A stretch of 51,508 nt of DNA, taken from positions 1 to 51,508 of the forward strand of contig CAZPGP010000006.1 in NCBI GenBank assembly GCA_964586395.1, given 5' to 3'. Below the pieces are notes generated by a model. That model did not search any database. It worked only from the letters and a program-made list of their open reading frames with translations, and was not told where the DNA came from. The translations under genes were made by a program, and so were the position numbers. The stretch is from an uncultured Candidatus Saccharibacteria bacterium (lineage in GTDB: Bacteria; Patescibacteriota; Saccharimonadia; Saccharimonadales; EFPC-124). This document shows, one piece after another, positions 7,697-51,444 of the stretch. The stretch's first letter is position 1. The number at the start of each line of letters is the position of its first letter.

Positions 7697-7915
7697 AACT
7701 TGATGACAATTGTATCTGTTTTAGGAGGAAATGTAAAGGGTATGGGCAGGGAGCAAACAGAGGAGACGCTTGGCTGGAATTGGTGTGAGGCTCTAAGAGT
7801 TGGCAATCCAGGGGTAAATGTGGTAAAGTACTGAGGTAATAAGTTTTAACGAATCACCCTGACGCGCGTTCAAATCCTCCCATTCGGGAAAGCGCAGGGG
7901 AAGGAGAAGGATTTT

Positions 7916-9396: not shown

Positions 9397-9981
9397 TCAC
9401 CGAGTGGGCAGCAGGCAGGTTGCCAGGCTGCTGATGCGGCCACCTGGTACCGAGTCCCGGCGAATTTCATCCGGGCTCACGAACTGGATCTTGGGCGACG
9501 CCTTGAGCTTGGCCAGCACCGCAGCGGGCAGACCGATGTCGAAGATCTCGACCAGGTACAGAGTGTCCTGGACCGCGACGCCGCTGGGGCTTTGACCACG
9601 GTGCTGGACACGTCCCCTGAGTCGCTGGGTCAGGTGCCTGGCTTCGGCCGACGTCAGAACGTGGCTCCGGTCGATGAGCTGTTCGAACAGGGAGCGCAGC
9701 ACTCCGGTCTCCCGGAGCTGACGCGTTCCGAACCAGGTGACGACGTTGTCGACTCGAGCCACAGGCACAGTGAACCGAAGGTCGGATCGGCCCTCGGGCT
9801 GTGCCGCTCCGCAGTGCGTGGCCAGATAGTCCCAGCCGGTGGTGCTTTGGAGCGACCCGCCAAGTGGTCGCAGGAAGGTCTGGCCTTCTTTGGTCGTGAC
9901 GTAGAGCGCCAGGTTGCCTGCATCGTCCTTGATGCCGGCGAGCCCGGCGCAACTTACTCGGATTCTCGTGCCCGTACCCAT
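9397..9981 (-). CDS. GC-rich orphan protein A1 (paralog of 10173-10799; Nudix-fold-like N-terminus with a degenerate Nudix box)
   Basis: Start moved to ATG 9981, preceded by GGAGGTGG and a TTGTCA-16-TATAAT promoter. Third codon positions are almost all G/C. Shares the blocks RVSCxG, PxGGxL, LRFxVP, NVVxWFxTR, TLYLxE and DEIR with A2. Confidence 0.55.
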   Translation of the reverse strand: MGTGTRIRVSCAGLAGIKDDAGNLALYVTTKEGQTFLRPLGGSLQSTTGWDYLATHCGAAQPEGRSDLRFTVPVARVDNVVTWFGTRQLRETGVLRSLFEQLIDRSHVLTSAEARHLTQRLRGRVQHRGQSPSGVAVQDTLYLVEIFDIGLPAAVLAKLKASPKIQFVSPDEIRRDSVPGGRISSLATCLLPTR

Positions 9982-10030
9982 GATCAAGCCACCTCCGGTG
10001 GGGGAGTATTGCCAACAAGAACAAGGATTC

Positions 10031-10058
10031 ATTATATGTGTGTAACATTTTGTGACAA
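10031..10058 (-). promoter_or_regulatory. Sigma70-type promoter of cassette gene A1
   Basis: On the minus strand: TTGTCA (10058-10053), 16-nt spacer, TATAAT (10036-10031). Sits in a short AT-rich spacer between two GC-rich ORFs. Confidence 0.5.
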
Positions 10059-10172
10059 TCTTGAAATTATTGGGCGAAGTTGTCGGGTATAATATCTTGC
10101 GCGTTGAGTGGGGTCTCGCGCCAGATGGCGCCCGGCGAGTGGCTCGGGCACCATCTGGGCGGTGTGTTCTCG

Positions 10173-10799
10173 TCAACCTCTCGGGATCGTCTCGCTCGGA
10201 CGCAAGAGCGAAGCGGCGATGGGGTGGATGGGCGCGTCGTTGATCTCCAGCTTCTTGGCTCGGATCTCGTCAGCCGTGGCGAAACGGAAGTGCGACCGCC
10301 GTGCCACGGACTGCTGTCGCAACACGCGCATCGCCGCAGCCGGCACGGTGACCACGTACAGCTCGATCAAGTACAGCGTGTTGCGCTCATGCACGTTGGT
10401 GCGGAAGGTCTTGCCCGTTCCGCGTGCGAAGCCGGCGAAGCGATCGGTGATGCTGGCCGCCTGGGCGCGAGTGAGCACGCCGGTCTCCTCGAACAGCGCG
10501 TTCCGGAGTACTCGTCCGACTGATGTGTCGCGGTCCTCCCGCGTCTCGAACCAGTCGACGACGTTCGGAACCTGGGATGTCGGCACGGCGAACCGCAACG
10601 CAGCAGCCTGCTCGAAGGTGTCCGTTGGCGCGCCGAACTTCTGCATGAGCTTCGCCATCCCGCGGGCGCTCGCGTGGAGCGCGCCGCCGATCGGCATCAG
10701 GCCCATGTGTGACTCCATGTCGGTCAGTAGGCCGTAGCGCTTGCCATCCTTGAGAATGGCAAAGCCCGGACAGCTGACCCTTGTCATCATCGTTGACAT
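10173..10799 (-). CDS. GC-rich orphan protein A2 (paralog of A1)
   Basis: 208-aa ORF with ATG 10799 preceded by GGGGAG. High GC3. Contains PIGGAL and LFEETGVL, but the spacing does not fit a canonical Nudix box. Confidence 0.6.
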   Translation of the reverse strand: MSTMMTRVSCPGFAILKDGKRYGLLTDMESHMGLMPIGGALHASARGMAKLMQKFGAPTDTFEQAAALRFAVPTSQVPNVVDWFETREDRDTSVGRVLRNALFEETGVLTRAQAASITDRFAGFARGTGKTFRTNVHERNTLYLIELYVVTVPAAAMRVLRQQSVARRSHFRFATADEIRAKKLEINDAPIHPIAASLLRPSETIPRG

Positions 10800-15991: not shown

Positions 15992-16020
15992 AAAAAGTCC
16001 GGCGCTGTGCCGGACTTTTT
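15992..16020. terminator. Intrinsic (bidirectional-looking) terminator after greA
   Basis: AAAAAGTCCGGC-gctgt-GCCGGACTTTTT, a perfect stem flanked by A5 and T5. Confidence 0.7.
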
Positions 16021-16032
16021 GTGCTGTGAGTG

Positions 16033-16041
16033 TATAAGTTC
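16033..16041 (+). repeat. Cassette junction motif TATAAGTTC (exact)
   Basis: Lies between the greA terminator and the hairpin of cassette gene B1. Confidence 0.6.
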
Positions 16042-16052
16042 TGTGCGGTGAT

Positions 16053-16084
16053 CCGCCGCCTGCGATGGTGGTCGCAGGGGCGGG
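16053..16084 (-). terminator. GC-rich hairpin downstream of cassette gene B1
   Basis: CCGCCGCCTGCGA-tggtgg-TCGCAGGGGCGG (one bulge). No U-tract. Confidence 0.45.
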
Positions 16085-16132
16085 TCGCCGACATCGTGTT
16101 AGGGGTCTCGTCCCGGTGCCGCCAGTGACAGC

Positions 16133-16639
16133 CTAGGCCGTCACGTACCGGTACCCGAACGCGTTCGGGCTGGTGAGTCGCAGCGCGGCCGGGATGGCGA
16201 CGAAGCCGAAGGCCAGGAGGGACTCCAGGACGGAACTGATGCTGATCTTCTGGACGATGAGCAGGCCCACGGTGGTGGTACTGGCCATGGCCACGATCAC
16301 TGCGATCGTCGTCAGCTTGCCCGAGCGACCAGTCCTCGCCATCGGCCGCTTCGCGAAGCTGGTGATGATGATCGCGAGCATGCTGACGATGAACGTCGCC
16401 AGCGCGATCACCGCGACCATGCCGAGGTTTTCCCAGCGCATGTAGTCCTTGATACCGATGAAGCCGAGCACCTCCCGCGTGCCAACGGGGTAGTGGGCGC
16501 CGAAGAAGTTCACGGCCTGGAAGTACGCGAGGGTCATGCCGATGGAGAAGGCGGTCGCCGTAATGGCGTCTGCGATCGCGGCGCGGATTTCACCGTTGTC
16601 GGAGTTGTACTGGCCGCGGATGATGTTGGGGATTCGCAC
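16133..16639 (-). CDS. GC-rich 4-TM membrane protein B1 (orphan)
   Basis: 168 aa. GTG start preceded by AGGAG. Four hydrophobic segments and high GC3. C-terminal NAFGYRYV resembles APIGYRRLGF of B2. Confidence 0.55.
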   Translation of the reverse strand: MRIPNIIRGQYNSDNGEIRAAIADAITATAFSIGMTLAYFQAVNFFGAHYPVGTREVLGFIGIKDYMRWENLGMVAVIALATFIVSMLAIIITSFAKRPMARTGRSGKLTTIAVIVAMASTTTVGLLIVQKISISSVLESLLAFGFVAIPAALRLTSPNAFGYRYVTA

Positions 16640-16699
16640 GGAGCGCTCCTGTGATGTCGGGTTCGGGGCGGGTGTTAGCTGCCCTAGTTGAACTTGAAT

Positions 16700-16728
16700 A
16701 TATTAGCATAAAAGGTTTAAAATGTCAA
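16700..16728 (-). promoter_or_regulatory. Near-consensus sigma70 promoter of cassette gene B1
   Basis: On the minus strand: TTGACA (16728-16723), 17-nt spacer, TAATAT (16705-16700). Confidence 0.6.
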
Positions 16729-16779
16729 TATCTTATAACCACCTTCACCCCTGTTGTGAAGTCGGGAAATAGGGTAATC

Positions 16780-16788
16780 TATAAGTTC
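16780..16788 (+). repeat. Cassette junction motif TATAAGTTC (exact)
   Basis: Lies between the B1 promoter region and the hairpin of cassette gene B2. Confidence 0.6.
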
Positions 16789-16795
16789 TTGTCAG

Positions 16796-16834
16796 GCTGG
16801 CCCGCCACCGTCAGATCGACGGGGCGGGGCCAGC
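16796..16834 (-). terminator. GC-rich hairpin downstream of cassette gene B2
   Basis: GCTGGCCCGCC...GGCGGGGCCAGC (one bulge), 22 nt past the stop at 16856. Confidence 0.45.
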
Positions 16835-16855
16835 GCTGAGTTCATCTTGCTCGGG

Positions 16856-17344
16856 TCACTTCGAATTGGTGAAGCGGATGAACCCGAGTCGCCGGTAGCC
16901 GATCGGCGCCGCGGCCAGACCGAAGGCACCGAACGCCTGGAGGAGCTTGATCGGGTCGAAGCCGTACGGGTAGGACGGCAGGGCGACCAGCTCGCGGATG
17001 CTGCCCATGATCCAGATGACGACCGTTGCCGCCAGCATCACCAGTATGGTGCGCCAGACGGTCCGGAACATCGAGCGGATCAGGCGAGGCTCGGATCGGA
17101 GCAGCACGCTGTTGGCCATGCTGGCCAGGCCGACCATGGCCGCGACGACTGCCTGTGTGGTCGCGACGTTCTCGAACTCCATGGGCATGAACCACCGGCC
17201 GCGGTCGCTCGCGTTGTAGAGCGCGAACGAGGCGATCAGAGTGATCATGCTGAGGACGAAGACCAGGACGGCGTCGATCAGCCCCACCAGGAGCGGGTTG
17301 TTGTATGTGGAAACCAGTCGAGCGAGACGTGTACGCGTGGTCAC
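16856..17344 (-). CDS. GC-rich 4-TM membrane protein B2 (orphan, same architecture as B1)
   Basis: 162 aa. GTG start preceded by GGGAGG. Four hydrophobic segments and high GC3. Several long shadow ORFs overlap it in other frames. Confidence 0.55.
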   Translation of the reverse strand: MTTRTRLARLVSTYNNPLLVGLIDAVLVFVLSMITLIASFALYNASDRGRWFMPMEFENVATTQAVVAAMVGLASMANSVLLRSEPRLIRSMFRTVWRTILVMLAATVVIWIMGSIRELVALPSYPYGFDPIKLLQAFGAFGLAAAPIGYRRLGFIRFTNSK

Positions 17345-17406
17345 GCGTGCCTCCCGGGTAGTGGTTGATGCAAAGCGGATGAAGCTCAGATTTGCTATTT
17401 TATAAC

Positions 17407-17435
17407 ATAATCATTATGAAGTCAATTAATGTCCA
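17407..17435 (-). promoter_or_regulatory. Sigma70-type promoter of cassette gene B2
   Basis: On the minus strand: TTGACT (17435-17430), 17-nt spacer, TAAAAT (17412-17407). Confidence 0.55.
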
Positions 17436-17486
17436 TCCGTTCACCTCTGGCAAGTTGGATCCAAATAGGGTAAAATATCCCCAGTT

Positions 17487-19013
17487 ATGCAGTGGTTAAA
17501 CGACATCGTAGAGCGAGCAATGACTCAGCACCCCCAAGGCGAGATTATCGTCAGTTCTGGCGTGTCGCCATCTGGCAAGTACCACCTCGGGACACTCCGT
17601 GAGATTCTGACCGCTGAAGCTATTATGGTTGAGCTGAAGCGCCGTGGCCGCGAGGCACGCCATCTGCACATCGTGGACGACCTCGATATCTTCCGCAAAG
17701 TTCCCTCTCAAGTCCCAGAAGAGTGGAGTGAGCATCTCGGCAAACCACTTTGTGACGTCCCATCGCCAGATGGCAACGGCAGCTACGCTGATTACTACCT
17801 AGCTGACATGATCGAGGCCGGCAAGAAGCTTCGACTCCAGATGGAAGTTGTGCGCTCACACGAGAAATACCGCCAAGGATTCTACGTGCCGGCTATCGAG
17901 AAAGCTCTGGCAGGTGTTGATATTATCCGCAAGGCAATCACCGAAGTTTCTGGACGTCAACTTGAGGAGTCTTGGTCGCCAATCCAAGTCATCGAAGATG
18001 GCCGACTTAAGAATCGCCAGTTCAAATCGATCAACACCGACAGCAAAACGCTCGTCTACGTGGACGGCGAAGGTAACGATCGCGAAATCGGGTACGCAGA
18101 CGGTCTGGTTAAGCTCAACTGGCGTATCGACTGGCCTGGTCGTTGGTGGCTCATGGGTGTAAATGTTGAGCCATTCGGCCGAGACCACGCTACTAAGGGC
18201 GGCAGCTTCGACACCGGCGAAGTGATCGTCCGCGATGTTTTTGAGGCACCAGCACCAATCCCTGTACCATACGACTTCATCAACCGTACGGGCGAGACCA
18301 AGAAGATGAGTAAGTCTGCCGGTAACACCATTACTGCATCTGAACTTGTCGAGATGATGCCTGCCGAGATCGTGTGGTTCTTCATCTTGCGCGCCGCTCC
18401 AAGCAAGCTCCTTTTCTTTGACGAAGGCGAGATCATGATGCGCCTGTTCGATGAATTCGCTGCGCTTTTGGCCAAACCAGACCGCACCGAAGCCGAGCAG
18501 CAGCTTATTGAGCTTTGTACCCACGATGTCGAGCCAACAGTTAGCAACATTCCATTTACGCACCTCGTTGCCAGCTACCAGGCTTCGCTGAAGGACGCCG
18601 ACAAAACCATCGATGTGATTCGTCGCACCGCCGAACACGCCGCAACTGCCGAGAAAGATGCCGAGATCATCCGCGCAGAGCTGCGCTTTATCGACAATTG
18701 GCTTCAGAACCGCGCCCCAGAAGACGTGAAATTTGAGCTACTCGAAACAGTTAACGCCGCTGACTTTAATGAAGTCGAAGTTGAATTCCTGACCCGATTA
18801 GGTGAGAAGGTTGCTCAAGCCCCGGCTGATGCCGACGGCCAGTGGTTCCACAACGCAATCTACGAATTCAAAGAAGAACTCGGCCTCAGCCCGAAAGATA
18901 TGTTCACCACGCTGTATCGCGCGCTCATCGGCCGCACCAGCGGTCCACGAGCTGGCTGGTTCCTGAGCATTTTGCCACGGGAGTGGTTGGTTGCAAGGCT
19001 GCAACTCAGATGA
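17487..19013 (+). CDS. lysK: Class I lysyl-tRNA synthetase
   Basis: SGVSPSGKYHLGTLRE (HIGH-type) and KMSKSAGN (KMSKS). The 508-aa length and layout match class I LysRS. Confidence 0.85.
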   Translation: MQWLNDIVERAMTQHPQGEIIVSSGVSPSGKYHLGTLREILTAEAIMVELKRRGREARHLHIVDDLDIFRKVPSQVPEEWSEHLGKPLCDVPSPDGNGSYADYYLADMIEAGKKLRLQMEVVRSHEKYRQGFYVPAIEKALAGVDIIRKAITEVSGRQLEESWSPIQVIEDGRLKNRQFKSINTDSKTLVYVDGEGNDREIGYADGLVKLNWRIDWPGRWWLMGVNVEPFGRDHATKGGSFDTGEVIVRDVFEAPAPIPVPYDFINRTGETKKMSKSAGNTITASELVEMMPAEIVWFFILRAAPSKLLFFDEGEIMMRLFDEFAALLAKPDRTEAEQQLIELCTHDVEPTVSNIPFTHLVASYQASLKDADKTIDVIRRTAEHAATAEKDAEIIRAELRFIDNWLQNRAPEDVKFELLETVNAADFNEVEVEFLTRLGEKVAQAPADADGQWFHNAIYEFKEELGLSPKDMFTTLYRALIGRTSGPRAGWFLSILPREWLVARLQLR

Positions 19014-19597
19014 AAAAAGTTCCCTTTGATCATGACAACCTAGACATAAAGAACAATCTTCTCAACCTCGCCCGTCAATCGTGGGATTCAGGCGACTTTG
19101 AGAAGAAGCTTGCTTCCTTGATAATCTTTGCGAGTTTCGCCGAGTATCTGGCCGAACACCTTCTCGATACCGTTCGCTACGCAGTGGAGAGGGCTAGTTA
19201 TCAGTCATACGGAGCGGTTATTTTTTTGAAGGCTGATGATACCAAGGCTAAACCACTCAATATGAGCGACTATATTAATCGCTTGTCCAACTTTGAGTTC
19301 CCTGATAAGAAGGATACCCTCAAGCTAATGAAAACCATTGCAACAGCGCGCAACAAGCTTTTTCATGATTTTGCGCGCATCACTCTAGAAGAGGCGGCAA
19401 TAGTCGACAAGTACGTTGAGGACATCAAGGAAGGTACGGAAGAGCTAATTACTAAGGTCAACACAATCGAAGGCAGCATCAAGGCTCAGGTGGTTACGCT
19501 TGTGACGCCACCGGGCACCGTCGATTCAAGCGGTGCAGCCGCAGCCTCTCAAGACGAATCCAGCAATAAGGAGCCTGAATCACCTAAAGAGCTGTAA
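19010..19597 (+). CDS. Hypothetical all-alpha protein with a HEPN-type RNxxxH motif and an acidic/Ser-rich tail
   Basis: ATG 19010 overlaps the lysK stop (ATGA). The sequence TIATARNKLFHDF fits the Rx4H HEPN signature. The listed ORF from 18842 is an out-of-frame run inside lysK. Confidence 0.4.
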   Translation: MKKVPFDHDNLDIKNNLLNLARQSWDSGDFEKKLASLIIFASFAEYLAEHLLDTVRYAVERASYQSYGAVIFLKADDTKAKPLNMSDYINRLSNFEFPDKKDTLKLMKTIATARNKLFHDFARITLEEAAIVDKYVEDIKEGTEELITKVNTIEGSIKAQVVTLVTPPGTVDSSGAAAASQDESSNKEPESPKEL

Positions 19598-27428: not shown

Positions 27429-27437
27429 TATAAGTTC
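27429..27437 (+). repeat. Cassette junction motif TATAAGTTC (exact)
   Basis: Starts 4 nt after the secA terminator and lies 15 nt before the hairpin of cassette gene C. Confidence 0.6.
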
Positions 27438-27452
27438 AAGTGTTGCCCGGGC

Positions 27453-27481
27453 GGGCGCCGACGAGTGGTTCGTCGACGCCC
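27453..27481 (-). terminator. GC-rich hairpin downstream of cassette gene C
   Basis: GGGCGCCGACGA-gtggt-TCGTCGACGCCC (one mismatch). Confidence 0.45.
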
Positions 27482-27501
27482 AGCCACAGTGAACTGCCCG
27501 G

Positions 27502-27813
27502 TCAGGGCAGGAACAGCGTGATGTAGCTCACGCCGTGGGCCGGTGGCGCACCCGACTCGGGCTGGTGGAAGAAGCGCAGTCCACGACAGTGGCCTGCAAA
27601 GACGCCGCTCATCACGAACATCAGTGCTTCGACATCGCGCACCGGGTAGCTGCGGTCGTTGCTGAACCGTGGCTTGGTCCAGCAAGCCACCACCAGATGT
27701 CCCTTGGGCAGGCCGGCGGTGAGAGCCTCTAGGGCCTTCGCCGCAGCTGCCGCGTCGCCGGCGATACCTCTCCTGGCATCAGGGTCGGTGGGGAAGCGAT
27801 CAGTGATTTCCAT
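27502..27813 (-). CDS. GC-rich orphan protein C (103 aa)
   Basis: ATG 27813. High GC3. No recognisable motif. Bracketed by its own promoter and hairpin. Confidence 0.5.
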   Translation of the reverse strand: MEITDRFPTDPDARRGIAGDAAAAAKALEALTAGLPKGHLVVACWTKPRFSNDRSYPVRDVEALMFVMSGVFAGHCRGLRFFHQPESGAPPAHGVSYITLFLP

Positions 27814-31874: not shown

Positions 31875-32690
31875 TTATAATTCTTCTAGGTGCTTCTTGT
31901 ACTGAAGCGGCGTGAGGCCGACGGTGCTTTTGAAGTCGGTAATAAAGTGTTGCTGGCTGCTGTAGCCGAGGTCATACGCGATCGCTGTCCAGTCGGGCTG
32001 TTCGGTCTGACGAATACGTTCGGTTGCCGAGAGTAACATATGACGCTTCAGGAACCACTTGAGGCCAACGCCGACATATTCGGCGAATAGCGCTTGAATC
32101 CATCGTTCGCTTCGGCCAATTTGACGCGCGACGTCGCTGACCGTGAGGTTGGAATCGTCGGCTTCGATAGTTATGATGAGCTGATTGATTATCTCGATAT
32201 TAGGATCAGCTTGCGGTCGGAGCGAGCGAAGAAGCTCGGCAAACTCCATGGCATGGTCAGGGAGCGCAAGCAGCCGATGCTGCTCATGTAAATCCAAACC
32301 GGGTAGCAGGCGTTGTAACGGCACGACCGAATCCTGGAGTTCTGACATCTTGCCGGACCACAATGCGTGGAATGCGCCGGGGCGGAAGCGTGCGCCAATA
32401 ATTTTACCTGTCTCTGCGGCGACGTATGTCCGTTTGCCGCGGAATGTTCCCTGAATGCCAGCCTCGTCGGCCGATATAAAGACGTCAACAAATGGGCGGT
32501 GCATGACTTGGCTCGAATGATATGCGCTCTGCAGGTCCTGCCAACTAATGGTCCAGAAGTGTTGCACAAATTGTGCGAGGTCGGCTGGCGGCTTTTGAAT
32601 AGAGAAGTTGACGCTGCGCTTGAACCCTTCTGGGTTCAGGTGGCCACGCGATCGGTAACTGTCTGCGGGTTTTTGTAATATCTCTGTCAC
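31875..32690 (-). CDS. AraC-family transcriptional regulator
   Basis: C-terminal double HTH (VSDVARQIGRSERWIQALF ... GYSSQQHFITDFKSTVGLTPLQYKK). Confidence 0.8.
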   Translation of the reverse strand: MTEILQKPADSYRSRGHLNPEGFKRSVNFSIQKPPADLAQFVQHFWTISWQDLQSAYHSSQVMHRPFVDVFISADEAGIQGTFRGKRTYVAAETGKIIGARFRPGAFHALWSGKMSELQDSVVPLQRLLPGLDLHEQHRLLALPDHAMEFAELLRSLRPQADPNIEIINQLIITIEADDSNLTVSDVARQIGRSERWIQALFAEYVGVGLKWFLKRHMLLSATERIRQTEQPDWTAIAYDLGYSSQQHFITDFKSTVGLTPLQYKKHLEEL

Positions 32691-32740
32691 GTTGCTGGCT
32701 ATTATAGGGCTAGCCTCATTAATAACAAAGGAGATAACAG

Positions 32741-33163
32741 ATGAGCAAACAACATTTTCTACGTGGCATGGCTACCGTAAACTATTTCGCGGAGGACGTC
32801 ATTGCCGCACGCGACTGGTACGCTGCATTGTTCGGCGCGGAAGCCTACTTCCAGATGCCAAGCAAGGAAGCTCCGGCGTATGTCGAGTTCCGAATCGGTG
32901 ATAACGAAGACGAATTCGGTATCATCGACCGCAAGTATGCACCAAAGGCTATGCAGCCCGGTCCTGGCGGTTCGATCTTGCTATGGCATGTGGATGATGT
33001 CGAGGCGACATTCACAAAACTATTGGATATGGGGGCGACGGAGTACGATCCAATCACCAAGCGTGGCGAGTCTGGATTTGTGACCGCTTCGGTTGTGGAC
33101 CCATTCGGTAACGTCTTGGGCATAATGTACAACCCGCATTATGTCGAAATCCTTGGCAAATAA
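32741..33163 (+). CDS. VOC (glyoxalase/bleomycin-resistance) family protein
   Basis: 140 aa with paired beta-alpha-beta-beta-beta modules (YVEFRIG..., ILLWHVDDVEA..., ASVVDPFGNVLGI). Confidence 0.65.
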   Translation: MSKQHFLRGMATVNYFAEDVIAARDWYAALFGAEAYFQMPSKEAPAYVEFRIGDNEDEFGIIDRKYAPKAMQPGPGGSILLWHVDDVEATFTKLLDMGATEYDPITKRGESGFVTASVVDPFGNVLGIMYNPHYVEILGK

Positions 33164-33171
33164 ATAAGTTC
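33163..33171 (+). repeat. Cassette junction motif variant AATAAGTTC
   Basis: Overlaps the last base of the TAA stop of the VOC gene and lies 15 nt before the hairpin of cassette gene D. Confidence 0.55.
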
Positions 33172-33186
33172 AAAAGTGGTGCTGAC

Positions 33187-33221
33187 ACGCCCGTCGGACC
33201 CAGAGTGGGGCCGACGGGCGT
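33187..33221 (-). terminator. GC-rich hairpin downstream of cassette gene D
   Basis: ACGCCCGTCGG...CCGACGGGCGT, a perfect 11-bp stem. Confidence 0.5.
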
Positions 33222-33248
33222 GCAGTCGGGGCGTGCAGCGCCCGCGAC

Positions 33249-33605
33249 CTACTGCTCGGGGCGCTGACGCTCCTTCGTGATCCGCCTGGTGCGCCGCCCG
33301 GCCTTCTTGTTCTTCGCGATGAACGACACGAAGGCGATGATGACGATTGTGGCCATCGCCGCGATGAACAGGTTCACCAGGAACACCAGTGCTCCGGCCA
33401 GGATCGTGATGAACGGCCGGTCGCCGGTGTTCGAGCCCACCATCATGTTCATGATGGACTCCAACATGCCCAGGAAGGCGATGGAGACGTACGTCGTGAT
33501 GCTCGCGACCGCGAGATCGATGAGCGCCCAGCGCTTCCAGCGGCCCCTGGTCCTCGTCCGTGGACGCGGGGTCTCGTCAGCCGCCGGCTCGGGCAAAGTG
33601 GACAT
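33249..33605 (-). CDS. GC-rich small 2-TM membrane protein D with Arg/Lys-rich termini (orphan)
   Basis: Start moved to ATG 33605, preceded by GGGAGG; the longer ORF to 33662 would run through the -10 box. Two hydrophobic segments. Confidence 0.55.
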   Translation of the reverse strand: MSTLPEPAADETPRPRTRTRGRWKRWALIDLAVASITTYVSIAFLGMLESIMNMMVGSNTGDRPFITILAGALVFLVNLFIAAMATIVIIAFVSFIAKNKKAGRRTRRITKERQRPEQ

Positions 33606-35328: not shown

Positions 35329-35337
35329 TATAAGTTC
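35329..35337 (+). repeat. Cassette junction motif TATAAGTTC (exact)
   Basis: Lies between the two convergent cassette genes E1 and E2, 24 nt before the E2 hairpin. Confidence 0.6.
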
Positions 35338-35361
35338 ATATCTCGAGCGAGCGGAATAGCT

Positions 35362-35399
35362 GCGCGGCCGGGCTCAGAACTAGATAGAGCCCGGCGCGC
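35362..35399 (-). terminator. GC-rich hairpin downstream of cassette gene E2
   Basis: GCGCGGCCGGGCTC...GAGCCCGGCGCGC (one bulge), 4 nt past the stop at 35403. Confidence 0.5.
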
Positions 35400-35402
35400 G
35401 TG

Positions 35403-35777
35403 TCAGCAGAAGCGGTGCTTGAACGCGACGGGCAATTCTGTGCCCAGTGCGCGAATTTTTTGGTCTTCCCCGGCCCAAGGGATGGGGGTGGTGACCAGGC
35501 CTGCCGCAACCGTGATCCTGTTCGATGCCGTTTGGCCTACTCCGTAGCGCGGAGCGAAGGCGAAGAGCACCCATTCGGGCAGGATCATCATGAACCAGCC
35601 TTCCTCCAAGTCTAGGAGACGCTGGCTAACGACGATCGGCAGAGACGGGCTCCCCAGCACGGCCTGGGCGCGTTGCCAAGACGGGGCGGGTAACACGGCT
35701 CGGGCGATTCTCAGCGGCGTAGGGCCGGACCGAGGGGCTTTGATCATCAGCCCCCGGTACGGGTTACGAGTTACCAT
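35403..35777 (-). CDS. GC-rich orphan protein E2 (124 aa)
   Basis: ATG 35777 preceded by AGGAAA. A TATAAT box lies upstream on the minus strand at about 35812-35817. No motif recognised. Confidence 0.45.
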   Translation of the reverse strand: MVTRNPYRGLMIKAPRSGPTPLRIARAVLPAPSWQRAQAVLGSPSLPIVVSQRLLDLEEGWFMMILPEWVLFAFAPRYGVGQTASNRITVAAGLVTTPIPWAGEDQKIRALGTELPVAFKHRFC

Positions 35778-37569: not shown

Positions 37570-38697
37570 ATGATGAAGATTCGAATGCGTACACAAACAA
37601 ACATCACCATCTTCGGAAGCCTTCGCAAAGCAGCCGCCGGCACGCTTCTTGCTTTGTTGATGGCAATCTCTCCAGCTTTGAGCGTCTACGCCGACAACTT
37701 TGACGACCAAATCAACGCCCTGCAGCAGCAGGTGAGTGCCTTCCAGGAACAGGCCGGCCAATTGCGCGCACAGGCAGATAATCTGCAGGCTCAGATTGGC
37801 GCCATCGACACCCAGAAGCGAGCGATCGAGGCGCAAATATCTGCCAACGAGCTCAAGAGGGAGCAGCTGAATCAGCAGATCCAGGAAACTTCCGACCGTA
37901 TCACAACGCAGAAGGATGGCTTGGGCAAAAACCTTCGTTCTATGTATGTAGAGAGCGACATTTCTCCGCTTGAAATGGTTGCCTCCAGCAAAAGCATCAG
38001 TGATTTTATCGACAAGCAGGAATACCGCAACAAGATTCGCGATGCCATTCAGGACAGCCTAAAACAGATCAAGGATTTGCAGGCCAAGCTCACCTCACAG
38101 CGCCAGGAAGTCGAGAACGTCCTAGCGAGCCAGAAGGCTTTGCAGTCCAACCTTGCAGAGCAGGAAGCTCAGAAGAACCAGCTATTGGCTGAGACTCAGG
38201 GCCAGGAAGACGCTTATCGTCAGCTCGTATCCAGCAACAACAATAAAATCAACGACCTACGTTCACAGCAGCGCGCCGCTAACGCACGCTTTATTGGCTC
38301 GGCTGGCTCTGGCCCAGCTTGTGGCGGCGGCTACCCGGGCGTCTACTGTAACGCGCCAATGGACAGCATCGTCGACAACTGGCTGATGTATAACCGCGAA
38401 TGTGTGAGCTACGCTGCCTGGAAAGTCTACGTCAGCCACGGCTACAGCCCAACAGGCTGGGGTAACGCTAACATGTGGCCTGGCAATGCTCGGTCCGCCG
38501 GCCTGTCGGTGGACGGTAACCCTCGCGTTGGCGACGTCGCCGTTTGGAACGTCGGCTACTATGGTCACGTTATGTACGTCGAAGCGGTTCACGGTGACGG
38601 CACGATCTCTATCTCGCAGTACAATGCCGACTGGAACGGTACGTTCAGTACCGCTCGAGTCAGCGCTGGTGGCCTAGAGTTTATTCACTTCAAATAG
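37570..38697 (+). CDS. PcsB-like peptidoglycan hydrolase (signal peptide, long coiled coil, C-terminal CHAP domain)
   Basis: Gln-rich heptad region of about 200 aa, then a CHAP core with NRECVSYAAWKV (Cys) and GHVMYVEAV (His). Lies directly downstream of ftsEX. Confidence 0.75.
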   Translation: MMKIRMRTQTNITIFGSLRKAAAGTLLALLMAISPALSVYADNFDDQINALQQQVSAFQEQAGQLRAQADNLQAQIGAIDTQKRAIEAQISANELKREQLNQQIQETSDRITTQKDGLGKNLRSMYVESDISPLEMVASSKSISDFIDKQEYRNKIRDAIQDSLKQIKDLQAKLTSQRQEVENVLASQKALQSNLAEQEAQKNQLLAETQGQEDAYRQLVSSNNNKINDLRSQQRAANARFIGSAGSGPACGGGYPGVYCNAPMDSIVDNWLMYNRECVSYAAWKVYVSHGYSPTGWGNANMWPGNARSAGLSVDGNPRVGDVAVWNVGYYGHVMYVEAVHGDGTISISQYNADWNGTFSTARVSAGGLEFIHFK

Positions 38698-38779: not shown

Positions 38780-39709
38780 ATGCAACTCGGAATGGTGGGC
38801 CTGGGCAAGATGGGCGGCAACATGGTGGCGCGTCTCGTCCGCGATTCCGGCCACGAGGTCGTCGTCTTCGACCGCGAGCCCGATGCCATCACTCGCATTC
38901 AGGAGAGCGGCGTCGGCGTCACCGGTGCTTACTCGCTGGTGCGACTGGTCGAGCGCCTGGAAGCCCCGCGCGTAGTGTGGGTCATGGTGCCGGCCGGACA
39001 GCCGACGGAGTCGACCATCGACGAACTGGCCGACTTGCTGGAGCCGGGCGACGTCATCATCGACGGCGGCAACACCAACTGGCACGACGACACCCGTCGG
39101 CACTCGGTTCTGGCTGAGCGCGGCATCCACTACGTGGACGTCGGCACGTCCGGCGGCGTGCACGGTCTGAACAACGGCTACTGCATGATGGTCGGCGGCG
39201 ACGGCGAGGTCGTCAAGCTCATCGAGCCGATCCTGGACACCCTGGCGCCCGCGCCCAACGCGACGCACGGCCCGGGGTGGCTGCACGTCGGTCCGGCCGG
39301 TGCGGGTCACTACGTCAAGATGGTCCACAACGGCATCGAGTACGGAATGATGCGCGCCATCGCCGAGGGCTTCGGCATCATGGACGCCCACGAGTTCGAC
39401 CTGGATCTGGCCAAGATCGCGCACCTGTGGATGCGCGGCAGCGTGGTGCGGTCCTGGCTGGTTGAGTTGACGGCCGCAGCTCTGGACGCCGAGGGCAACG
39501 ATCTCGCAGGCCTGAAGCCGGTGGTCGCTGACTCGGGTGAGGGCCGCTGGACGGTCGACGAAGCCGTGCGCCTGCGGGTGCCGGCGTACGTGATCGCCGC
39601 GTCGCTGTTCTCGCGGTTCGACTCGCAGGATGGGGGCGACTTCGCTGCCAGGTGCGAGGCCGCACTCCGGGCTCAGTTCGGCGGCCACGCTGTCGTCCGC
39701 AAGGACTGA
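38780..39709 (+). CDS. gnd: 6-phosphogluconate dehydrogenase (decarboxylating), short gnd-like form; GC-rich cassette gene F
   Basis: Contains MQLGMVGLGKMGGNM (Rossmann), IIDGGNT, VDVGTSGGVHG and HYVKMVHNGIEYGMM. Start at ATG 38780 after GAGAGGGGA. GC3 is near saturation. Confidence 0.85.
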   Translation: MQLGMVGLGKMGGNMVARLVRDSGHEVVVFDREPDAITRIQESGVGVTGAYSLVRLVERLEAPRVVWVMVPAGQPTESTIDELADLLEPGDVIIDGGNTNWHDDTRRHSVLAERGIHYVDVGTSGGVHGLNNGYCMMVGGDGEVVKLIEPILDTLAPAPNATHGPGWLHVGPAGAGHYVKMVHNGIEYGMMRAIAEGFGIMDAHEFDLDLAKIAHLWMRGSVVRSWLVELTAAALDAEGNDLAGLKPVVADSGEGRWTVDEAVRLRVPAYVIAASLFSRFDSQDGGDFAARCEAALRAQFGGHAVVRKD

Positions 39710-39789: not shown

Positions 39790-39798
39790 GAGCTTATG
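39790..39798 (-). repeat. Degenerate junction motif (minus strand CATAAGCTC), overlapping the start codon of the next gene
   Basis: Has 2 mismatches to TATAAGTTC. Its orientation relative to the cassette gene matches the other cassettes (gene, hairpin, GAACTTATA-like). Confidence 0.3.
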
Positions 39799-40302
39799 GA
39801 AAAGTTCTTGCCCGGTATTCATTTGTTACCAAAACGGGCGCGCCTCACACTTGGTTGGGTGGTTTTGATGATAGGGTTGGCTGTTAGCGTTGTGTCTATC
39901 GTGGCAGTTGCGAGTATGGGGCCAGCTTGTGGTGGCGGCTATCCGGAGAAATGGTGCCGCGCTAAACTTGATACAGTTGTGGACGACTGGGGGATGTACA
40001 ACCGTGAGTGCGTCAGTTATACCGCGCACAAGGTCGCTTCATCTGGTCGCGCTATGCCGTATGGCTTTGGTGACGCCAACAGGTGGCCAGAGGCCGCTCG
40101 TGATAATGGCATCGCCGTCGACGCACAACCTAGGGTGGGGGACGTGGCCGTCCTGCCAGATGGTGAGCACGGCCACTCGATGTATGTCGAGGCGGTCCAT
40201 AACGACGGCACGATCAGCGTCAGCCAGTACAACAAAGCCAAAACCGGCACCTACAGCGAAGAACGACGAAAGACTGAAGGCTTAGTGTTTATTCACTTCT
40301 AA
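39796..40302 (+). CDS. Small membrane-anchored CHAP-domain hydrolase (paralog of the C-terminus of 37570-38697)
   Basis: GPACGGGYPEKWCRAKLDTVVDDWGMYNRECVSYTAHKV ... GHSMYVEAV ... VFIHF aligns by eye with the CHAP domain of the PcsB-like protein. Confidence 0.75.
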   Translation: MEKFLPGIHLLPKRARLTLGWVVLMIGLAVSVVSIVAVASMGPACGGGYPEKWCRAKLDTVVDDWGMYNRECVSYTAHKVASSGRAMPYGFGDANRWPEAARDNGIAVDAQPRVGDVAVLPDGEHGHSMYVEAVHNDGTISVSQYNKAKTGTYSEERRKTEGLVFIHF

Positions 40303-43678: not shown

Positions 43679-44272
43679 TCAGTCCTCGTCCCGAATGTCG
43701 GGGATGGTGGGTTTGCGGCGAGCCCTGTCACGGAAGCGCGCCGCGATGGTGATGCCCTCTGTGGGGCGGTAGGCCAGCTCCAGGTCGCCAGTGGTCGGCA
43801 CGAGGCCTGGCGTGACGACCTTGAAGTACCAGCCGCAACGCGCGTTTCTCATCATGGCTGCGGCGGTTCCTTCGCCGCGCAGCATGTCGAGTTTGGCGCA
43901 CGGACTGCGTGGGCCGGTGACCTCCAGGAGGGCTTCACCCCAGCGCCATCGCTCGCCGATGAGTACCTCGTCCTCGGTGATCCCGTCGACCGTCAGGTTC
44001 TCGCCGAAGTCGCCGGGGACCAGGACTGTGCCCATCTCCGGCACCCACAGCGCGTAATGGTCGCGCGGGTAGACGTACACGGTCTTGTCGTTGACGGCAC
44101 CGTGCACTACGTGGTCGGCTTGCTCGTCGCCCTCCAGGCCGGTGGCGTGAAGGTAGACGTGTGTGTCGTTCACTGGCGCCTTGCGGATGCCGGAGCGGAC
44201 TTGCCTGCCACGGCGTTCGCCCAGCAGCGCCACTCGACCGGTGTTGACTGACACGATCTCCATTGTTCCCAT
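43679..44272 (-). CDS. MOSC-domain protein (YiiM-like); GC-rich cassette gene G
   Basis: Contains GLEGDEQAD, PGDFGENLTV.G, GERWRWGEALLEVTGPRSPCAKL (conserved Cys) and CGWYFKV. Start set to ATG 44272 after GGGAGAG; the TTG at 44290 is possible. Confidence 0.75.
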   Translation of the reverse strand: MGTMEIVSVNTGRVALLGERRGRQVRSGIRKAPVNDTHVYLHATGLEGDEQADHVVHGAVNDKTVYVYPRDHYALWVPEMGTVLVPGDFGENLTVDGITEDEVLIGERWRWGEALLEVTGPRSPCAKLDMLRGEGTAAAMMRNARCGWYFKVVTPGLVPTTGDLELAYRPTEGITIAARFRDRARRKPTIPDIRDED

Positions 44273-44307
44273 GCTCTCTCCCAGACTCAAGGGGACATGA
44301 CAGACTA

Positions 44308-47366: not shown

Positions 47367-48023
47367 ATGATTCGACAAAGCGACCAACGGGGCGAAGTCA
47401 ACCCACTGCTACTGATCAGTATCGTGCTGACCATTCTAGTGTTGGGCTTGGGCTCGTTCGGTATCTGGTCATACATCAACTATACAGATCAGAAAAATAA
47501 CGTCGACCAGAAGATTTCTGCCGCCGTGGCAGACGCCAAGCGCCAGCAGACCCTGGAAGACGAAGCTAAGTTCGCAGAACGCGAGAAGCAGCCAACCCGC
47601 GTCTTTGCCGGTCCTGACGATCTCGGTCGCGTACAGATTAGCTACCCTAAGACCTGGAGCGTCTACATCGACAAGGACGGTAGCGGCAGCAACAACTACG
47701 AAGCATACTTCTCAGCCGGTGTCGTGCCTCCAATCAACAGCAAAGTTCCGTACGCTCTTCGCGTAACTGTCGAAAACAAGAGCTACGAAGACATCCTCAA
47801 GACCTATCAAGAACTCGTAAAGAAGGGCGATCTTAAGTCCAGTCCAATTACTTTGCAAGGCCAAACCGGTACTCGCCTCGATGGCAAGTTCACCAAGGAA
47901 ATCTCTGGCTCAATGGTGCTCTTCAAGGTCCGCGACAAAACCCTCGAAGTCTACACTCAGTCGCCAACATTCGTACCTGACTACGACAACATCATCTTGC
48001 CTTCACTGATCTTCAACAAGTAG
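47367..48023 (+). CDS. Membrane-anchored hypothetical protein
   Basis: 218 aa with one N-terminal TM segment and a backbone-like composition. No motif recognised. Confidence 0.5.
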   Translation: MIRQSDQRGEVNPLLLISIVLTILVLGLGSFGIWSYINYTDQKNNVDQKISAAVADAKRQQTLEDEAKFAEREKQPTRVFAGPDDLGRVQISYPKTWSVYIDKDGSGSNNYEAYFSAGVVPPINSKVPYALRVTVENKSYEDILKTYQELVKKGDLKSSPITLQGQTGTRLDGKFTKEISGSMVLFKVRDKTLEVYTQSPTFVPDYDNIILPSLIFNK

Positions 48024-48031
48024 ATAAGTTC
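48023..48031 (+). repeat. Cassette junction motif variant GATAAGTTC
   Basis: Overlaps the last base of the TAG stop of the preceding gene and lies 16 nt before the hairpin of cassette gene H. Confidence 0.55.
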
Positions 48032-48047
48032 ATAAAATTTGACGTGC

Positions 48048-48071
48048 GGGCGGCCCTCTCTGGGGCCGCCC
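48048..48071 (-). terminator. GC-rich hairpin downstream of cassette gene H
   Basis: GGGCGGCCC-tctctg-GGGCCGCCC, a perfect 9-bp stem. Confidence 0.5.
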
Positions 48072-48100
48072 GATTCTCACTTCGTCTCGGATGCTTGGGG

Positions 48101-48697
48101 TCAGCCTGACATCTTGATGTCGGCCGGGTCGACGTTGTAGCGGGCGTATACCTCCCAGGCCGCACCGGTCGTCTGTTCGCCATGGATCATCTCTGGCGAC
48201 CGACCGTCTTGCGCACGAAGTTCGATGAACTTGTACTCAGCCTGATGGTCTTGCCCCTTGGGGTAGTAGTGGATGCTGCTACCTTGCCCCATCTGGACGA
48301 ATCGGCGTGCTTGCCAGGTAAGCCCGCGTGATCCGTCGAGGGTGAACACGACATTCACCGGGACTGCCATCCAGGCCGCACGGATCTTCCCGCTTGGGTC
48401 AGAGGGATCGGCCTGGATGTAGAGCATGGTGAACTTGCCGGCATCGCCTTTGAGGCCGATGCGGTAGCACCGCCCCTGCTGCATGCCGTGCACCACGGTT
48501 TGCGATTCAACTGCATAGGCCACGCCGTCGTAGATGATACGGTGACCGCCCCTCAGCGATAGCAGCTTTTGCTCATGCGTGGCTCGCTGTGCTTCGCTGT
48601 CTTGGGAGGGCGCGGCCCTACTGGCCCATGCACCCACAACAGCGGCGAGCACAACCACGCCGACTACGAGGAGAACTGCTCTCCATGCTTCAAACAT
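48101..48697 (-). CDS. GC-rich membrane-anchored/secreted orphan protein H (198 aa)
   Basis: Start moved to ATG 48697 after GGAG; the upstream part of the listed ORF is AT-rich promoter sequence. Has an N-terminal hydrophobic segment, AVLLVVGVVVLAAVVGAWA. Confidence 0.5.
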   Translation of the reverse strand: MFEAWRAVLLVVGVVVLAAVVGAWASRAAPSQDSEAQRATHEQKLLSLRGGHRIIYDGVAYAVESQTVVHGMQQGRCYRIGLKGDAGKFTMLYIQADPSDPSGKIRAAWMAVPVNVVFTLDGSRGLTWQARRFVQMGQGSSIHYYPKGQDHQAEYKFIELRAQDGRSPEMIHGEQTTGAAWEVYARYNVDPADIKMSG

Positions 48698-48824
48698 GAC
48701 AAACTCCAGAGGAGTTGGATGGTTAGAATGCGAGAATCGAGTATTATTGTTGTATATTTTTAGCAATTAAGCAAGTAGCTTGGCTTCGTGCTACACTTGA
48801 TATAGAACAAAAGTGAGGGTATAA

Positions 48825-49924: not shown

Positions 49925-50585
49925 GACCGAAGCCATTATCCTCCGGCGCACGAACTACGGCGAAGCTGACCGTATATTGAATTTGTTAACGCCCGAGCGA
50001 GGCAAAGTGAGTGCCATTGCGAAGGGCGTTCGCAAATCCAAGAGCAAGCTCGCCGGTGGCCTGGAGCTCTTCGCGACCTGTGATGTCACGATCCTACAGG
50101 GAAAGAGCGACATGGGAACGGTCAGCTCGGCGCGCCTGGTGAAATTTTACGGCGATATCCTGAAGGACTATGACCGCATGCAGCTGGCATATGAGCTTAT
50201 CAAGATGACAAACCGTGCAGCAGAGATGGTCGGCGAATCTGAGTTTTATTATCTGCTCCGCGACGGTATGGTGTATCTGAACGAGCTAACTGTTGACTAT
50301 CGCATTGTGGAGCTGTGGTTTCGGTTGCGCTATGCGTCGGCTCTGGGTGTGGGGCTTAACCTCGCCGCAACGGCACAGGGCGAACAGCTAAAGGCGGATG
50401 AGCGGTATAACTTTGATTTCGGCGATATGGCGTTTGGGCCGCATCCGAGCGGGCGATTTGGTTCGGAACATATCAAGCTGCTGCGGTTGGCGCACGCCAA
50501 AGATCCTGCCATCTTGCGGCAGGTGAGCGGTCTGAACGATGTGCTGGATGATTGCTTGTGGCTGGTCCGAGCACTTAATCAATAA
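49911..50585 (+). CDS. recO: DNA repair protein RecO
   Basis: Contains TEAIILRRTNYGEADRILNLLTPERGKVSAIAKGVRKSKSK (OB fold). Confidence 0.8.
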   Translation: MQTFRTEAIILRRTNYGEADRILNLLTPERGKVSAIAKGVRKSKSKLAGGLELFATCDVTILQGKSDMGTVSSARLVKFYGDILKDYDRMQLAYELIKMTNRAAEMVGESEFYYLLRDGMVYLNELTVDYRIVELWFRLRYASALGVGLNLAATAQGEQLKADERYNFDFGDMAFGPHPSGRFGSEHIKLLRLAHAKDPAILRQVSGLNDVLDDCLWLVRALNQ

Positions 50586-50593
50586 ATAATTTC
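50585..50593 (+). repeat. Degenerate junction motif AATAATTTC abutting the recO stop codon
   Basis: Has 2 mismatches to TATAAGTTC and lies 19 nt before the hairpin of cassette gene I. Confidence 0.3.
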
Positions 50594-50612
50594 AATTAGA
50601 GTCTCCGTGCCA

Positions 50613-50651
50613 GCCGACACCGCCGCCCAGGTTCTGGGCAGGGGTGTCGGC
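50613..50651 (-). terminator. GC-rich hairpin downstream of cassette gene I
   Basis: GCCGACACC.CC.CCCAG-gtt-CTGGG..GG.GGTGTCGGC. Confidence 0.5.
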
Positions 50652-50672
50652 CGACTTGAGAGAGGTTTCCCT

Positions 50673-51362: not shown

Positions 51363-51380
51363 GGCTAACTCCTCTCTCGG

Positions 51381-51403
51381 CCGCCAATTTCTAACATTGG
51401 CGG
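51381..51403 (-). promoter_or_regulatory. Perfect 8-bp inverted repeat in the leader of cassette gene I (possible operator or 5' hairpin)
   Basis: CCGCCAAT-ttctaac-ATTGGCGG, immediately upstream (in coding direction) of the SD sequence GAGAGGAG. Confidence 0.35.
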
Positions 51404-51444
51404 AATGAGACATATTCTAAACTATTTATACTGATTGGTCAAAT

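Follow-up and report, generated by a model that had tools for sequence, protein, structure and literature searches.

Two tandem GC-rich membrane-protein units with a shared 3' tail motif in the greA-lysK spacer of a Saccharimonadales genome

We have analysed a stretch of 51,508 nucleotides (contig CAZPGP010000006.1, assembly GCA_964586395.1; referred to below, at its full length, as the window) from an uncultured Candidatus Saccharibacteria bacterium, to which the closest genomes are soil metagenome-assembled genomes of Candidatus Saccharimonadales. Its greA-lysK spacer contains Island B, two monocistronic units that encode the membrane proteins B1 and B2 on the minus strand, antisense to the core genes; the flanking genes include rpsB, tsf, frr, uppS, rseP, proS, greA, class I lysK, serS and secA. 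The reading we favour, with confidence a little better than even, is that Island B is accessory DNA in a gene-turnover hotspot and consists of two independent, moron-like membrane-protein modules. The spacer itself is a turnover hotspot, with a variable number of units, both orientations and unrelated cargo. From the comparison of relatives, B1 behaves as a resident gene of the spacer that is orthologous across the clade, and not demonstrably as a hopping cassette. The units would spread and turn over by natural transformation and recombination in the conserved flanks, with no dedicated cassette recombinase.

An earlier note on this DNA had read the minus strand as promoter, Shine-Dalgarno (SD) sequence, open reading frame (ORF), hairpin and an exact 9-mer, twice in succession and followed by the greA terminator, with the 9-mer marking the end of each unit. 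Every element of this layout is present, and the array does consist of two autonomous promoter-ORF-hairpin units, each closed by the 9-mer (Table 1). The order is greA terminator, B1 unit, lysK-promoter remnant, B2 unit, lysK promoter and lysK. Promoter-like sites number seven in the Island B region against 0.9 expected, and the 3' untranslated regions (UTRs) of both units fold into much more stable structures than shuffled sequences (z = -7.9 for B1 and -5.5 for B2). The greA terminator begins 10 nt beyond the hairpin and 9-mer of B1 and probably ends the B1 transcript also. Both coding sequences (CDS) are set apart by their GC content at third codon positions (GC3; Table 1), as the host value is about 0.62 (core genes approximately 0.55-0.70); their UTRs are GC-rich too, and their promoters are AT-rich. 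Around ten GC-rich islands of this kind are found in the window.

Occupancy of the spacer and the B family

Relatives, designated here by L numbers, hold zero, one, two or at least three units at the greA-lysK spacer, the survey that the earlier note had called for. The spacer is empty in L010 (LysK 92%), L012-L015 and L085. A single minus-strand unit is present in L011, L018, L097, L099 and L103, and a single plus-strand unit with other cargo in L017 (112 aa) and L019 (TerC). Two units are found in the window and in L001-L008, and at least three in L020.

Where the genomic context could be recovered, B1 orthologs occupy this spacer in nearly every relative, which goes part of the way towards the situation that the earlier note had set against its cassettes, namely that of genes conserved in synteny in all relatives. 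The homologs P0005, P0006, P0007, P0016 and P0009 (the L018 ORF) all lie between divergent lysK and convergent greA; P0014 adjoins a NUDIX gene away from this spacer, and the contig of P0010 is too short for it to be placed. The identity of B1 is 89, 55 and 34% where that of ProS is 98, 95 and 86%, so that B1 tracks the divergence of the host but evolves about ten times faster. When the window is compared with L001, B1 has a ratio of nonsynonymous to synonymous divergence (dN/dS) of 0.67 and B2 one of 0.35; core genes give 0.00-0.09. Because its orthologs are syntenic and diverge in step with the host, we regard B1 as a resident, fast-evolving gene and not as a recently mobile cassette. In every genome that carries a B1 ortholog its GC3 is 0.78-0.95, where the host GC3 is 0.45-0.65.

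An exhaustive phmmer search of 1.84 billion representative proteins returned only 12 clusters for B1, all of 164-192 aa; this search was used since a word-indexed protein search gave only near-identical relatives. B-family homologs are confined to this Saccharimonadales clade (1.84e9 representatives; 5.8e9 clusters), and phmmer against the protein representatives revealed no donor homologs outside it. Neither B1 nor B2 has a match in Pfam, NCBIfam, PHROG or PADLOC, tblastn of both against phage records gave nothing, and Foldseek of the B1 model against the PDB found no fold match (best E-value 1.5). A scan of viral contigs with GGCGGCGG-N-GAACTTAT returned unspecific matches only. The four hydrophobic segments that the earlier note had seen in each protein are borne out by hydropathy for both and, for B1, by an AlphaFold model (pLDDT 76.7, pTM 0.68) with helices at residues 17-49, 69-95, 107-129 and 134-156. 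Across 15 aligned family members at 24-89% identity, length and the four-helix pattern are conserved, and D24 and P150-A151 are invariant, the latter as part of a PAALRLTSP motif; the alignment was too divergent for a locus scan. A 126-aa ORF in L011 represents a shortened member that retains the N- and C-terminal motifs and the UTR boxes described below.

No similarity between B1 and B2 is detected by BLASTP. Profile-profile comparison with hhalign does relate them (probability 86%, E 5e-6, colinear over 130 columns), and since they also have the same non-coding design in their UTRs and hairpins, B1 and B2 are probably distant paralogs within a small, clade-confined family, as had been suspected. 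The similar C-terminal GYR(Y/R) tail that had been cited for this relationship is weak, because the profile alignment pairs PIGYR of B2 with PAALR of B1 and not with the GYRY of B1. The B proteins may belong to the cell envelope and evolve under selection that is diversifying or relaxed, perhaps where the cell meets its host or phages.

The tail motif and the UTR boxes

The exact 9-mer GAACTTATA occurs four times in the window against an expectation of 0.13, and none of 100 shuffles reached four. Each of the four is on the minus strand and sits immediately 3' of a GC-rich hairpin that follows a high-GC ORF. The consensus of this tail, RAAMTTAT, also ends other GC-rich modules both in the window and in relatives. 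Within the window this consensus follows the hairpin in modules B1, B2, C, D and E and in those at 48.0 kb and 50.6 kb, all on one strand; in relatives it does so in L009, L011, L019 (twice), L020 (twice), L022, L097, L099, L225 and L226. Ortholog tails read, for example, AAACTTATT (L097), GAACTTATC (L099) and GAAATTATT (L022). The consensus has 17 matches in a GC-rich structured context, of which 16 fall in the ingroup (approximately 157 kb) and one in the outgroup (approximately 870 kb).

RAAMTTAT begins 0-13 nt past the base of the hairpin (median about 4; 16 modules) and is predicted to be single-stranded. Conservation is found on the module side only: beyond GAAMTTAT comes whichever element is next, be it a terminator or stop codon of the host or the promoter that follows. 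The orientation of the tail goes with that of the module, as seen in L017, and the tail is kept in most recovered B-family cassettes despite saturated divergence. When the D module is compared between genomes its 3'UTR is 88% identical, its CDS 48% and the core genes 77-83%. The contrast between the D 3'UTR and its CDS argues for a present function of the tail and not for a scar. The 9-mer may be a functional 3'-end element rather than the trace of an insertion, serving as the tail of a terminator or as a site for processing or binding immediately past the hairpin, and on balance a role at the transcript 3' end seems somewhat likelier than one as a recombination site. GC-rich modules with recognisable enzymes (NUDIX, MOSC, 6-phosphogluconate dehydrogenase (6PGDH) and TerC) lack the tail. 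A promoter and terminator scan called no terminator at the hairpin and 9-mer of either B unit.

At the modules we found neither a corresponding 5' element nor terminal inverted repeats, target-site duplications or attC boxes. An inverted repeat around the transcribed body, AAGTTC...GAACTT, is present in B1, L097 and L011 but inconsistent elsewhere, and it was rejected as a terminal inverted repeat. A 9-bp target-site duplication at B1 was likewise rejected, because single units have one copy of the motif only. By inspection, none of the interpretations of the 9-mer as a dif/Xer-like site, a restriction site of XmnI or PsiI type, or a -10 or -35 element fits all copies.

Five further GC-rich orphan modules with promoter, ORF, hairpin and RAAMTTAT lie on the minus strand of the window, at 27429-27813, 33163-33605, 35329-35777, 48023-48766 and 50585-51413. 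Module C (103 aa) has a 106-aa homolog in the same spacer of L226, and module D, with 2-3 transmembrane (TM) helices, has a syntenic counterpart in L225. A gene for an AraC-type regulator and a glyoxalase gene, both of native composition, occupy positions 31875-33163 of the window, exactly between the murL stop codon and the D tail motif; in L225 (3988-4071) the two genes are absent and the D tail motif abuts the murL stop codon. Two convergent modules in the rpmE-rpsB spacer of L019 (1592-3065) have tails that overlap in a 14-nt near-palindrome, AAACTTATAATTTC; this spacer is empty in the window (7697-7915).

A second set of conserved non-coding sequences is particular to the B family. All B1 orthologs have a TTGAC(T/A)-17-TAnnnT promoter, a small leader hairpin with a stem sequence that varies by member, the box CCCGACATCAC immediately beside the SD, the complementary box (T)GATGTCGG at the stop codon or directly behind it, and a bulged GC stem, CCCGCCCCTG..CAGG[C]GGCGGG. 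A longest-complement test gave individually significant 5'/3' complementarity at the same positions in 6 of 8 B1-family members, as against 1 of 12 non-B modules; RNAduplex energy z-scores had failed to discriminate in these GC-rich UTRs. Complementarity is kept where the sequence has changed, in L011 (GTACCCGACA/TGTCGGGTAC), L101 (TTGACATCAC/GTGATGTCA) and B2 (CTGAGCTTCATC/GATGAACTCAG, with one bulge). RNAalifold on seven family members recovered the 5'/3' pairing and a 3' stem-loop in which seven pairs show compensatory changes. There is no match to an Rfam family. In the predicted fold the 3' box can alternatively serve as the foot of the 3' stem. These predictions suggest that the boxes form an mRNA-closing or switching interaction, in principle like the hok fold-back: the box beside the SD would pair with that at the stop codon and close the mRNA, and this pairing would compete with the foot of the 3' hairpin, tuning mRNA stability or translation.

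Origin of the tandem and alternative explanations

The earlier note had also placed an 11-mer, AAATAGGGTAA, on the distal side of both promoters. The two copies are there, each one base away from the position first given (16767-16777 and 17463-17473). They do not mark a cassette end: the 11-mer belongs to the host lysK promoter and occurs in empty spacers also, and the junction copy lies in a decayed duplicate of that promoter. The native lysK promoter is kept in L010, L017 and L019. At the B1/B2 junction the duplicate is 35 nt long; in L001 and L002 it extends over a further 27 nt, apparently as far as the first codons of lysK. This duplicate leads us to propose that B2 was added by duplicative recombination, and the copying of the lysK promoter would account for the repeated 11-mer. 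B2 would have joined later, by a homology-anchored or an illegitimate event. The layout is what would be expected if an allele with B2 had recombined with one that carried B1, anchored by homology in lysK and joined illegitimately at the tail of B2. Natural competence and the integration of DNA via homologous recombination are established for Saccharibacteria (PMC10633639). The lysK gene (17487-19013) is mosaic: synonymous divergence (dS) between the window and L001 is 1.14, as against approximately 0.1 in neighbouring B2, B1 and greA, and a recombination breakpoint therefore lies at or near the lysK 5' end. Alleles of lysK closer to that of the window are carried by L010 and L097. On the 607-bp, 1x-coverage contig L009 (1-607), a B2-like ORF (72% identity) stands directly behind a lysK-type promoter and ATGCAATGG, with the tail GAAATTATC and then the greA terminator; this may be a promoter-capture allele, possibly a B2-like allele next to the greA terminator, or an assembly chimera.

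Several points weigh against our interpretation of Island B or limit it. The syntenic orthologs keep a GC3 of about 0.9 and GC-rich UTRs, which vertical descent does not explain. Polarised substitution counts run from G/C to A/T in 19 cases and from A/T to G/C in 4, but are biased and unreliable, since the outgroups are saturated and GC-rich. The AT-rich B promoters are absent from the empty site and so belong to the module, with which they travel as they would in a mobile unit. The B1 dN/dS of 0.67 is close to neutrality. The tail GAACUUAUA is not a canonical U-tract, and modules of native composition (L224) have no tail, which makes a general RNA signal less plausible and favours an association with the GC-rich modules as a class. 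The 5'/3' pairing in the B1 family rests chiefly on conservation, with few compensatory changes, and in the alifold input the CDS was swapped for a short linker. Promoters, transcript ends and UTR pairing are predictions, and the locus is present in DNA metagenomes only.

A true mobile cassette system, in which an enzyme encoded elsewhere recognises the variable hairpin with RAAMTTAT and new units join at the outer edge of the motif, after the manner of integron attC sites, HUH nic sites or IS91/Helitron 3' ends, is in our judgement unlikely, though it accounts for a good deal. The motif is kept on the module side only and tails unrelated orphan ORFs at many intergenic sites; the next promoter abuts it in tandem arrays (L020, L022), and the convergent modules of L019 have AAACTTATAATTTC in common. 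Both the junction of B2 with the lysK-promoter duplicate and the AraC-glyoxalase block lie exactly at its outer edge, the hairpins have conserved bulged bases, the AT-rich promoters travel with the units, and the seven motif-bearing modules of the window all share one strand. In a compact genome, however, an insertion is viable only exactly between functional units, so that joints at the edge of the motif would be expected in any case. The window ORFs contain no recombinase, transposase or integrase domain, and its 51.5 kb no tRNA genes; no gene for an integrase, transposase, HUH protein or reverse transcriptase was found in the window or in any of the fetched module-flanking loci. The modules also lack a matching 5' repeat, terminal inverted repeat or target-site duplication and, by inspection, attC R''/R' boxes, and the NUDIX modules as well as B1, C and D keep their positions from one species to another instead of being scattered. 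Metagenome contigs from four runs, aligned to the locus, gave no deletion or excision joints. A dedicated cassette-mobilising mechanism behind the modules has no direct support and is somewhere between unlikely and quite unlikely. We consider it quite unlikely, too, that the modules form an undescribed Saccharimonadales gene-capture and exchange system in which an enzyme from another part of the genome reads the hairpin together with the octamer, either as DNA or as RNA. If this were true, the capture enzyme would install, swap or maintain genes of foreign composition at intergenic landing sites of a genome-reduced epibiont, and the system would explain a transcribed body that remains GC-rich as well as a hypervariable ORF between conserved UTRs, as in module D.

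Recent direct capture of DNA from Actinobacteria or actinophages would make the hairpins the U-less terminators of the donors and the motif an incidental AT-rich boundary. The GC content, GC3 and UTR composition are typical of Actinobacteria, other GC-rich modules hold ordinary enzymes (6PGDH, MOSC, TerC and NUDIX), Saccharibacteria are competent epibionts of Actinobacteria (PMC10633639) and horizontal gene transfer is widespread in Patescibacteria (PMC12455944). We nevertheless find this origin rather improbable, given that the B family is confined to this clade in the searches above, that phage-record tblastn and PHROG gave no match, that the orthologs are syntenic and track host phylogeny, that plasmid-borne homologs of the 6PGDH-like gene reach no more than about 50% identity, and that the motif recurs far too often for an incidental sequence. 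A further proposal, which turns on the UTR boxes, is a type I toxin-antitoxin-like or hok-like arrangement in which B1 and B2 damage membranes and their mRNAs are rendered inert by 5'-3' fold-back, perhaps with an antisense RNA. It draws on the complementary boxes beside the SD and at the stop codon, on the ability of the 3' box to pair instead with the hairpin foot, on the duplicate at 16745-16779, which keeps a TANNNT -10 pointing into the B2 3' end as a possible antisense start, and on the hydrophobic products of stand-alone, variably present genes. Known type I toxins are under 60 aa with one TM helix, whereas the B proteins have 162-192 aa and four TM helices; the copy of the promoter at the junction has decayed and takes another form in L001, B1 is without an equivalent antisense promoter, and there is no Rfam or PADLOC match, so that this arrangement is very unlikely. 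It is extremely improbable that the B ORFs are spurious open frames in GC-rich non-coding DNA. Stop codons are scarce in such DNA, antisense ORFs of 73-173 aa occur here too, and the dN/dS of B1 is high, but length, the four-helix pattern, D24 and P150-A151 are kept over the 15 aligned sequences, the GC is concentrated at codon position 3 of the called frame, SD and promoter are conserved, and the AlphaFold model is confident.

Feature map, other modules and known systems

Table 1. Features of Island B and its borders, in window coordinates
Feature	Position	Strand	Remarks
greA bidirectional intrinsic terminator (AAAAAGTCCGGC...GCCGGACTTTTT)	15992..16020	.	kept in empty and occupied relatives
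B1 tail motif GAACTTATA	16033..16041	-	0 nt past base of extended hairpin; predicted single-stranded
B1 3'UTR extended stem-loop	16042..16095	-	core 16050-16086, CCCGCCCCTG..CAGG[C]GGCGG, bulged C
B1 3' box GATGTCGG	16088-16095	-	5' foot of extended stem-loop
B1 CDS, 168 aa, predicted four-helix integral membrane protein	16133..16639	-	GC3 0.92; resident B-family member
B1 5' leader	16640..16684	-	small hairpin 16666-16684; box CCCGACATCAC 16651-16661 abuts SD
B1 SD AGGAG	~16650	-	followed by GTG start codon
B1 promoter TTGACA-17-(TG)TAATAT	16700..16728	-	TTGAC(T/A)-17-TAnnnT kept in all B1 orthologs
lysK-promoter decayed duplicate (CACCCCTGTTGTGAAGTCGGGAAATAGGGTAATC)	16745..16779	+	holds first 11-mer copy, 16767-16777
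B2 tail motif GAACTTATA	16780..16788	-	3 nt past base of extended B2 hairpin
B2 3'UTR stem-loop CCCCGCCCCGTC..GACGG[T]GGCGGG	16796-16834	-	bulged T
B2 3' box GATGAACTCAG	16836-16846	-	
B2 CDS, 162 aa, predicted 4-TM membrane protein	16856..17344	-	GC3 0.88; probable distant B1 paralog
B2 5' leader	17345..17389	-	SD GGGAGG ~17355-17350; 5' box CTGAGCTTCATC 17378-17389
B2 promoter TTGACT-17-TAAAAT	17397..17425	-	
Native lysK promoter (CTGGCA-18-TAAAAT) and short leader	17441..17486	+	second 11-mer copy 17463-17473; back-to-back with B2 promoter

Further accessory genes are found at other sites. The tsf-frr spacer of the window (9397-10799, minus strand) contains two tandem GC-rich paralogs with a SMODS-associated NUDIX domain, resembling effectors of CBASS; they also match the PADLOC '2TM effector' and reverse transcriptase-associated NUDIX models and have no exact tail motif. 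L001 has two copies and L019 one. An NAD-dependent 6PGDH-like gene (38780-39709, plus strand) and a MOSC gene (43679-44290, minus strand) are likewise GC-rich and without the tail motif. The former sits between CHAP-domain paralogs (37570-38697 and 39796-40302; approximately 70% nucleotide identity), which were considered as the direct repeat of a fresh insertion and rejected as such, their identity being that of an old paralogy. Plasmid tblastn matches to the 6PGDH-like gene, at approximately 50% identity, come from mixed phyla, and no donor could be inferred. L223 and L224 possess neither this gene nor the second CHAP gene; L223 is also without modules C, D and E, and L224 and L226 have other small-protein genes at those sites.

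The lysK-DUF2207 spacer, directly downstream of lysK, is a second hotspot. It encodes an ORF with a weak HEPN (Csm6/Csx1-like) match in the window (18842-19597, plus strand), a Septu-like AAA_15/21 ATPase and an HNH gene in L001, a TauE permease in L097 and L019, and an AstE/AspA-like gene with two small ORFs in L099. The lysyl-tRNA synthetase gene itself differs between lineages: more distant Saccharimonadales have a class II enzyme (tRNA-synt_2 with OB fold) downstream of greA (L023 6377-7891, L026 597-2123), and a class I enzyme (tRNA-synt_1f) is found at the same position in this clade (window 17487-19013) and in L010-L015. The enzyme class has been exchanged in place. The secA-M16 spacer of L224 (8064-9852) contains three tandem paralogous genes for small TM proteins at native GC, each of which has a separate promoter followed by a leader that is conserved (GATGTTGGCAT.TCC); tandem arrays of small membrane proteins at hotspots are therefore not limited to GC-rich modules.

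Members of the Candidate Phyla Radiation such as the Saccharibacteria are obligate epibionts with minimal genomes, in which gene gain and expression are poorly understood. Island B is a concrete case, with clear boundaries, of accessory modules of one gene each at intergenic sites that recur as hotspots. Its clade-specific, fast-evolving membrane proteins are candidates for the host or phage interface, and the genetic system now available for Saccharibacteria makes them accessible to testing. Two conserved non-coding signatures, RAAMTTAT at the tail and the paired boxes of the UTRs, offer a means of finding the whole module class and of asking whether a dedicated mechanism exists. If the modules are ordinary hotspot islets, the value of the analysis lies mainly in annotation, that is, in the unit boundaries and in the recognition of the 11-mer as the lysK promoter.

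The phage 'moron' of the Hendrix/Juhala concept is an autonomous promoter, a single ORF and a terminator-like hairpin placed between unrelated genes; it has an odd composition, its presence varies among relatives and its cargo is often a membrane or defence protein. The B units resemble morons in being self-contained promoter-ORF-hairpin units, unlike their neighbours in composition and variably present. They differ in that their flanks are core genes (greA, proS, lysK, secA, prfB) with no prophage, that phage homologs were not found, that the modules have a common 3' tail and that the B family has common UTR boxes. In comparison with hok/sok mRNAs, there is likewise a predicted pairing of an SD-side leader box with a 3' box near the end of the ORF, and an alternative local 3' structure, but the protein is three times larger with four TM helices and no sequence or Rfam relationship exists.

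Among mobile elements, integron cassettes are also short single-ORF units with an imperfect, bulged hairpin beside a short conserved sequence, arranged in tandem arrays bounded at that sequence and with mostly orphan cargo. Integron cassettes are mostly promoterless and are expressed from Pc as an array in one orientation. In contrast to these, each unit described here has its own TTGACx-17-TAnnnT promoter, the sites are dispersed and intergenic with both orientations represented, and synteny of the units extends across species. Only one side of the hairpin bears the conserved sequence, no RYYYAAC/GTTRRRY pair is present on either strand of the regions 3' of the B1, B2, C, D and E ORFs, and no IntI or attI was found. 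The ends of IS91/ISCR/Helitron and IS200/IS605 elements provide a resemblance of form only, with a variable GC hairpin followed within 0-13 nt by a conserved 8-mer exactly at the unit boundary; the window and loci contain no Rep/HUH or TnpA gene, there is no conserved 5' end, the hairpin sequences vary from unit to unit and nothing indicates that units have moved from one locus to another. Unlike an insertion sequence, miniature inverted-repeat element or transposon, the modules have no terminal inverted repeats and the window no transposase, and each 9-mer is the tail of its own unit. Like flexible genomic islets, the greA-lysK, secA-M16, murL-prfB, prfB-ftsE, lysK-DUF2207 and tsf-frr spacers vary in their accessory genes and, as expected of islets exchanged by homologous recombination, the flanks are mosaic and the phylum is naturally competent (PMC10633639). 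The modules are distinguished from such islets by their single-gene scale, their strong compositional contrast, their own consensus promoters and their common tail motif.

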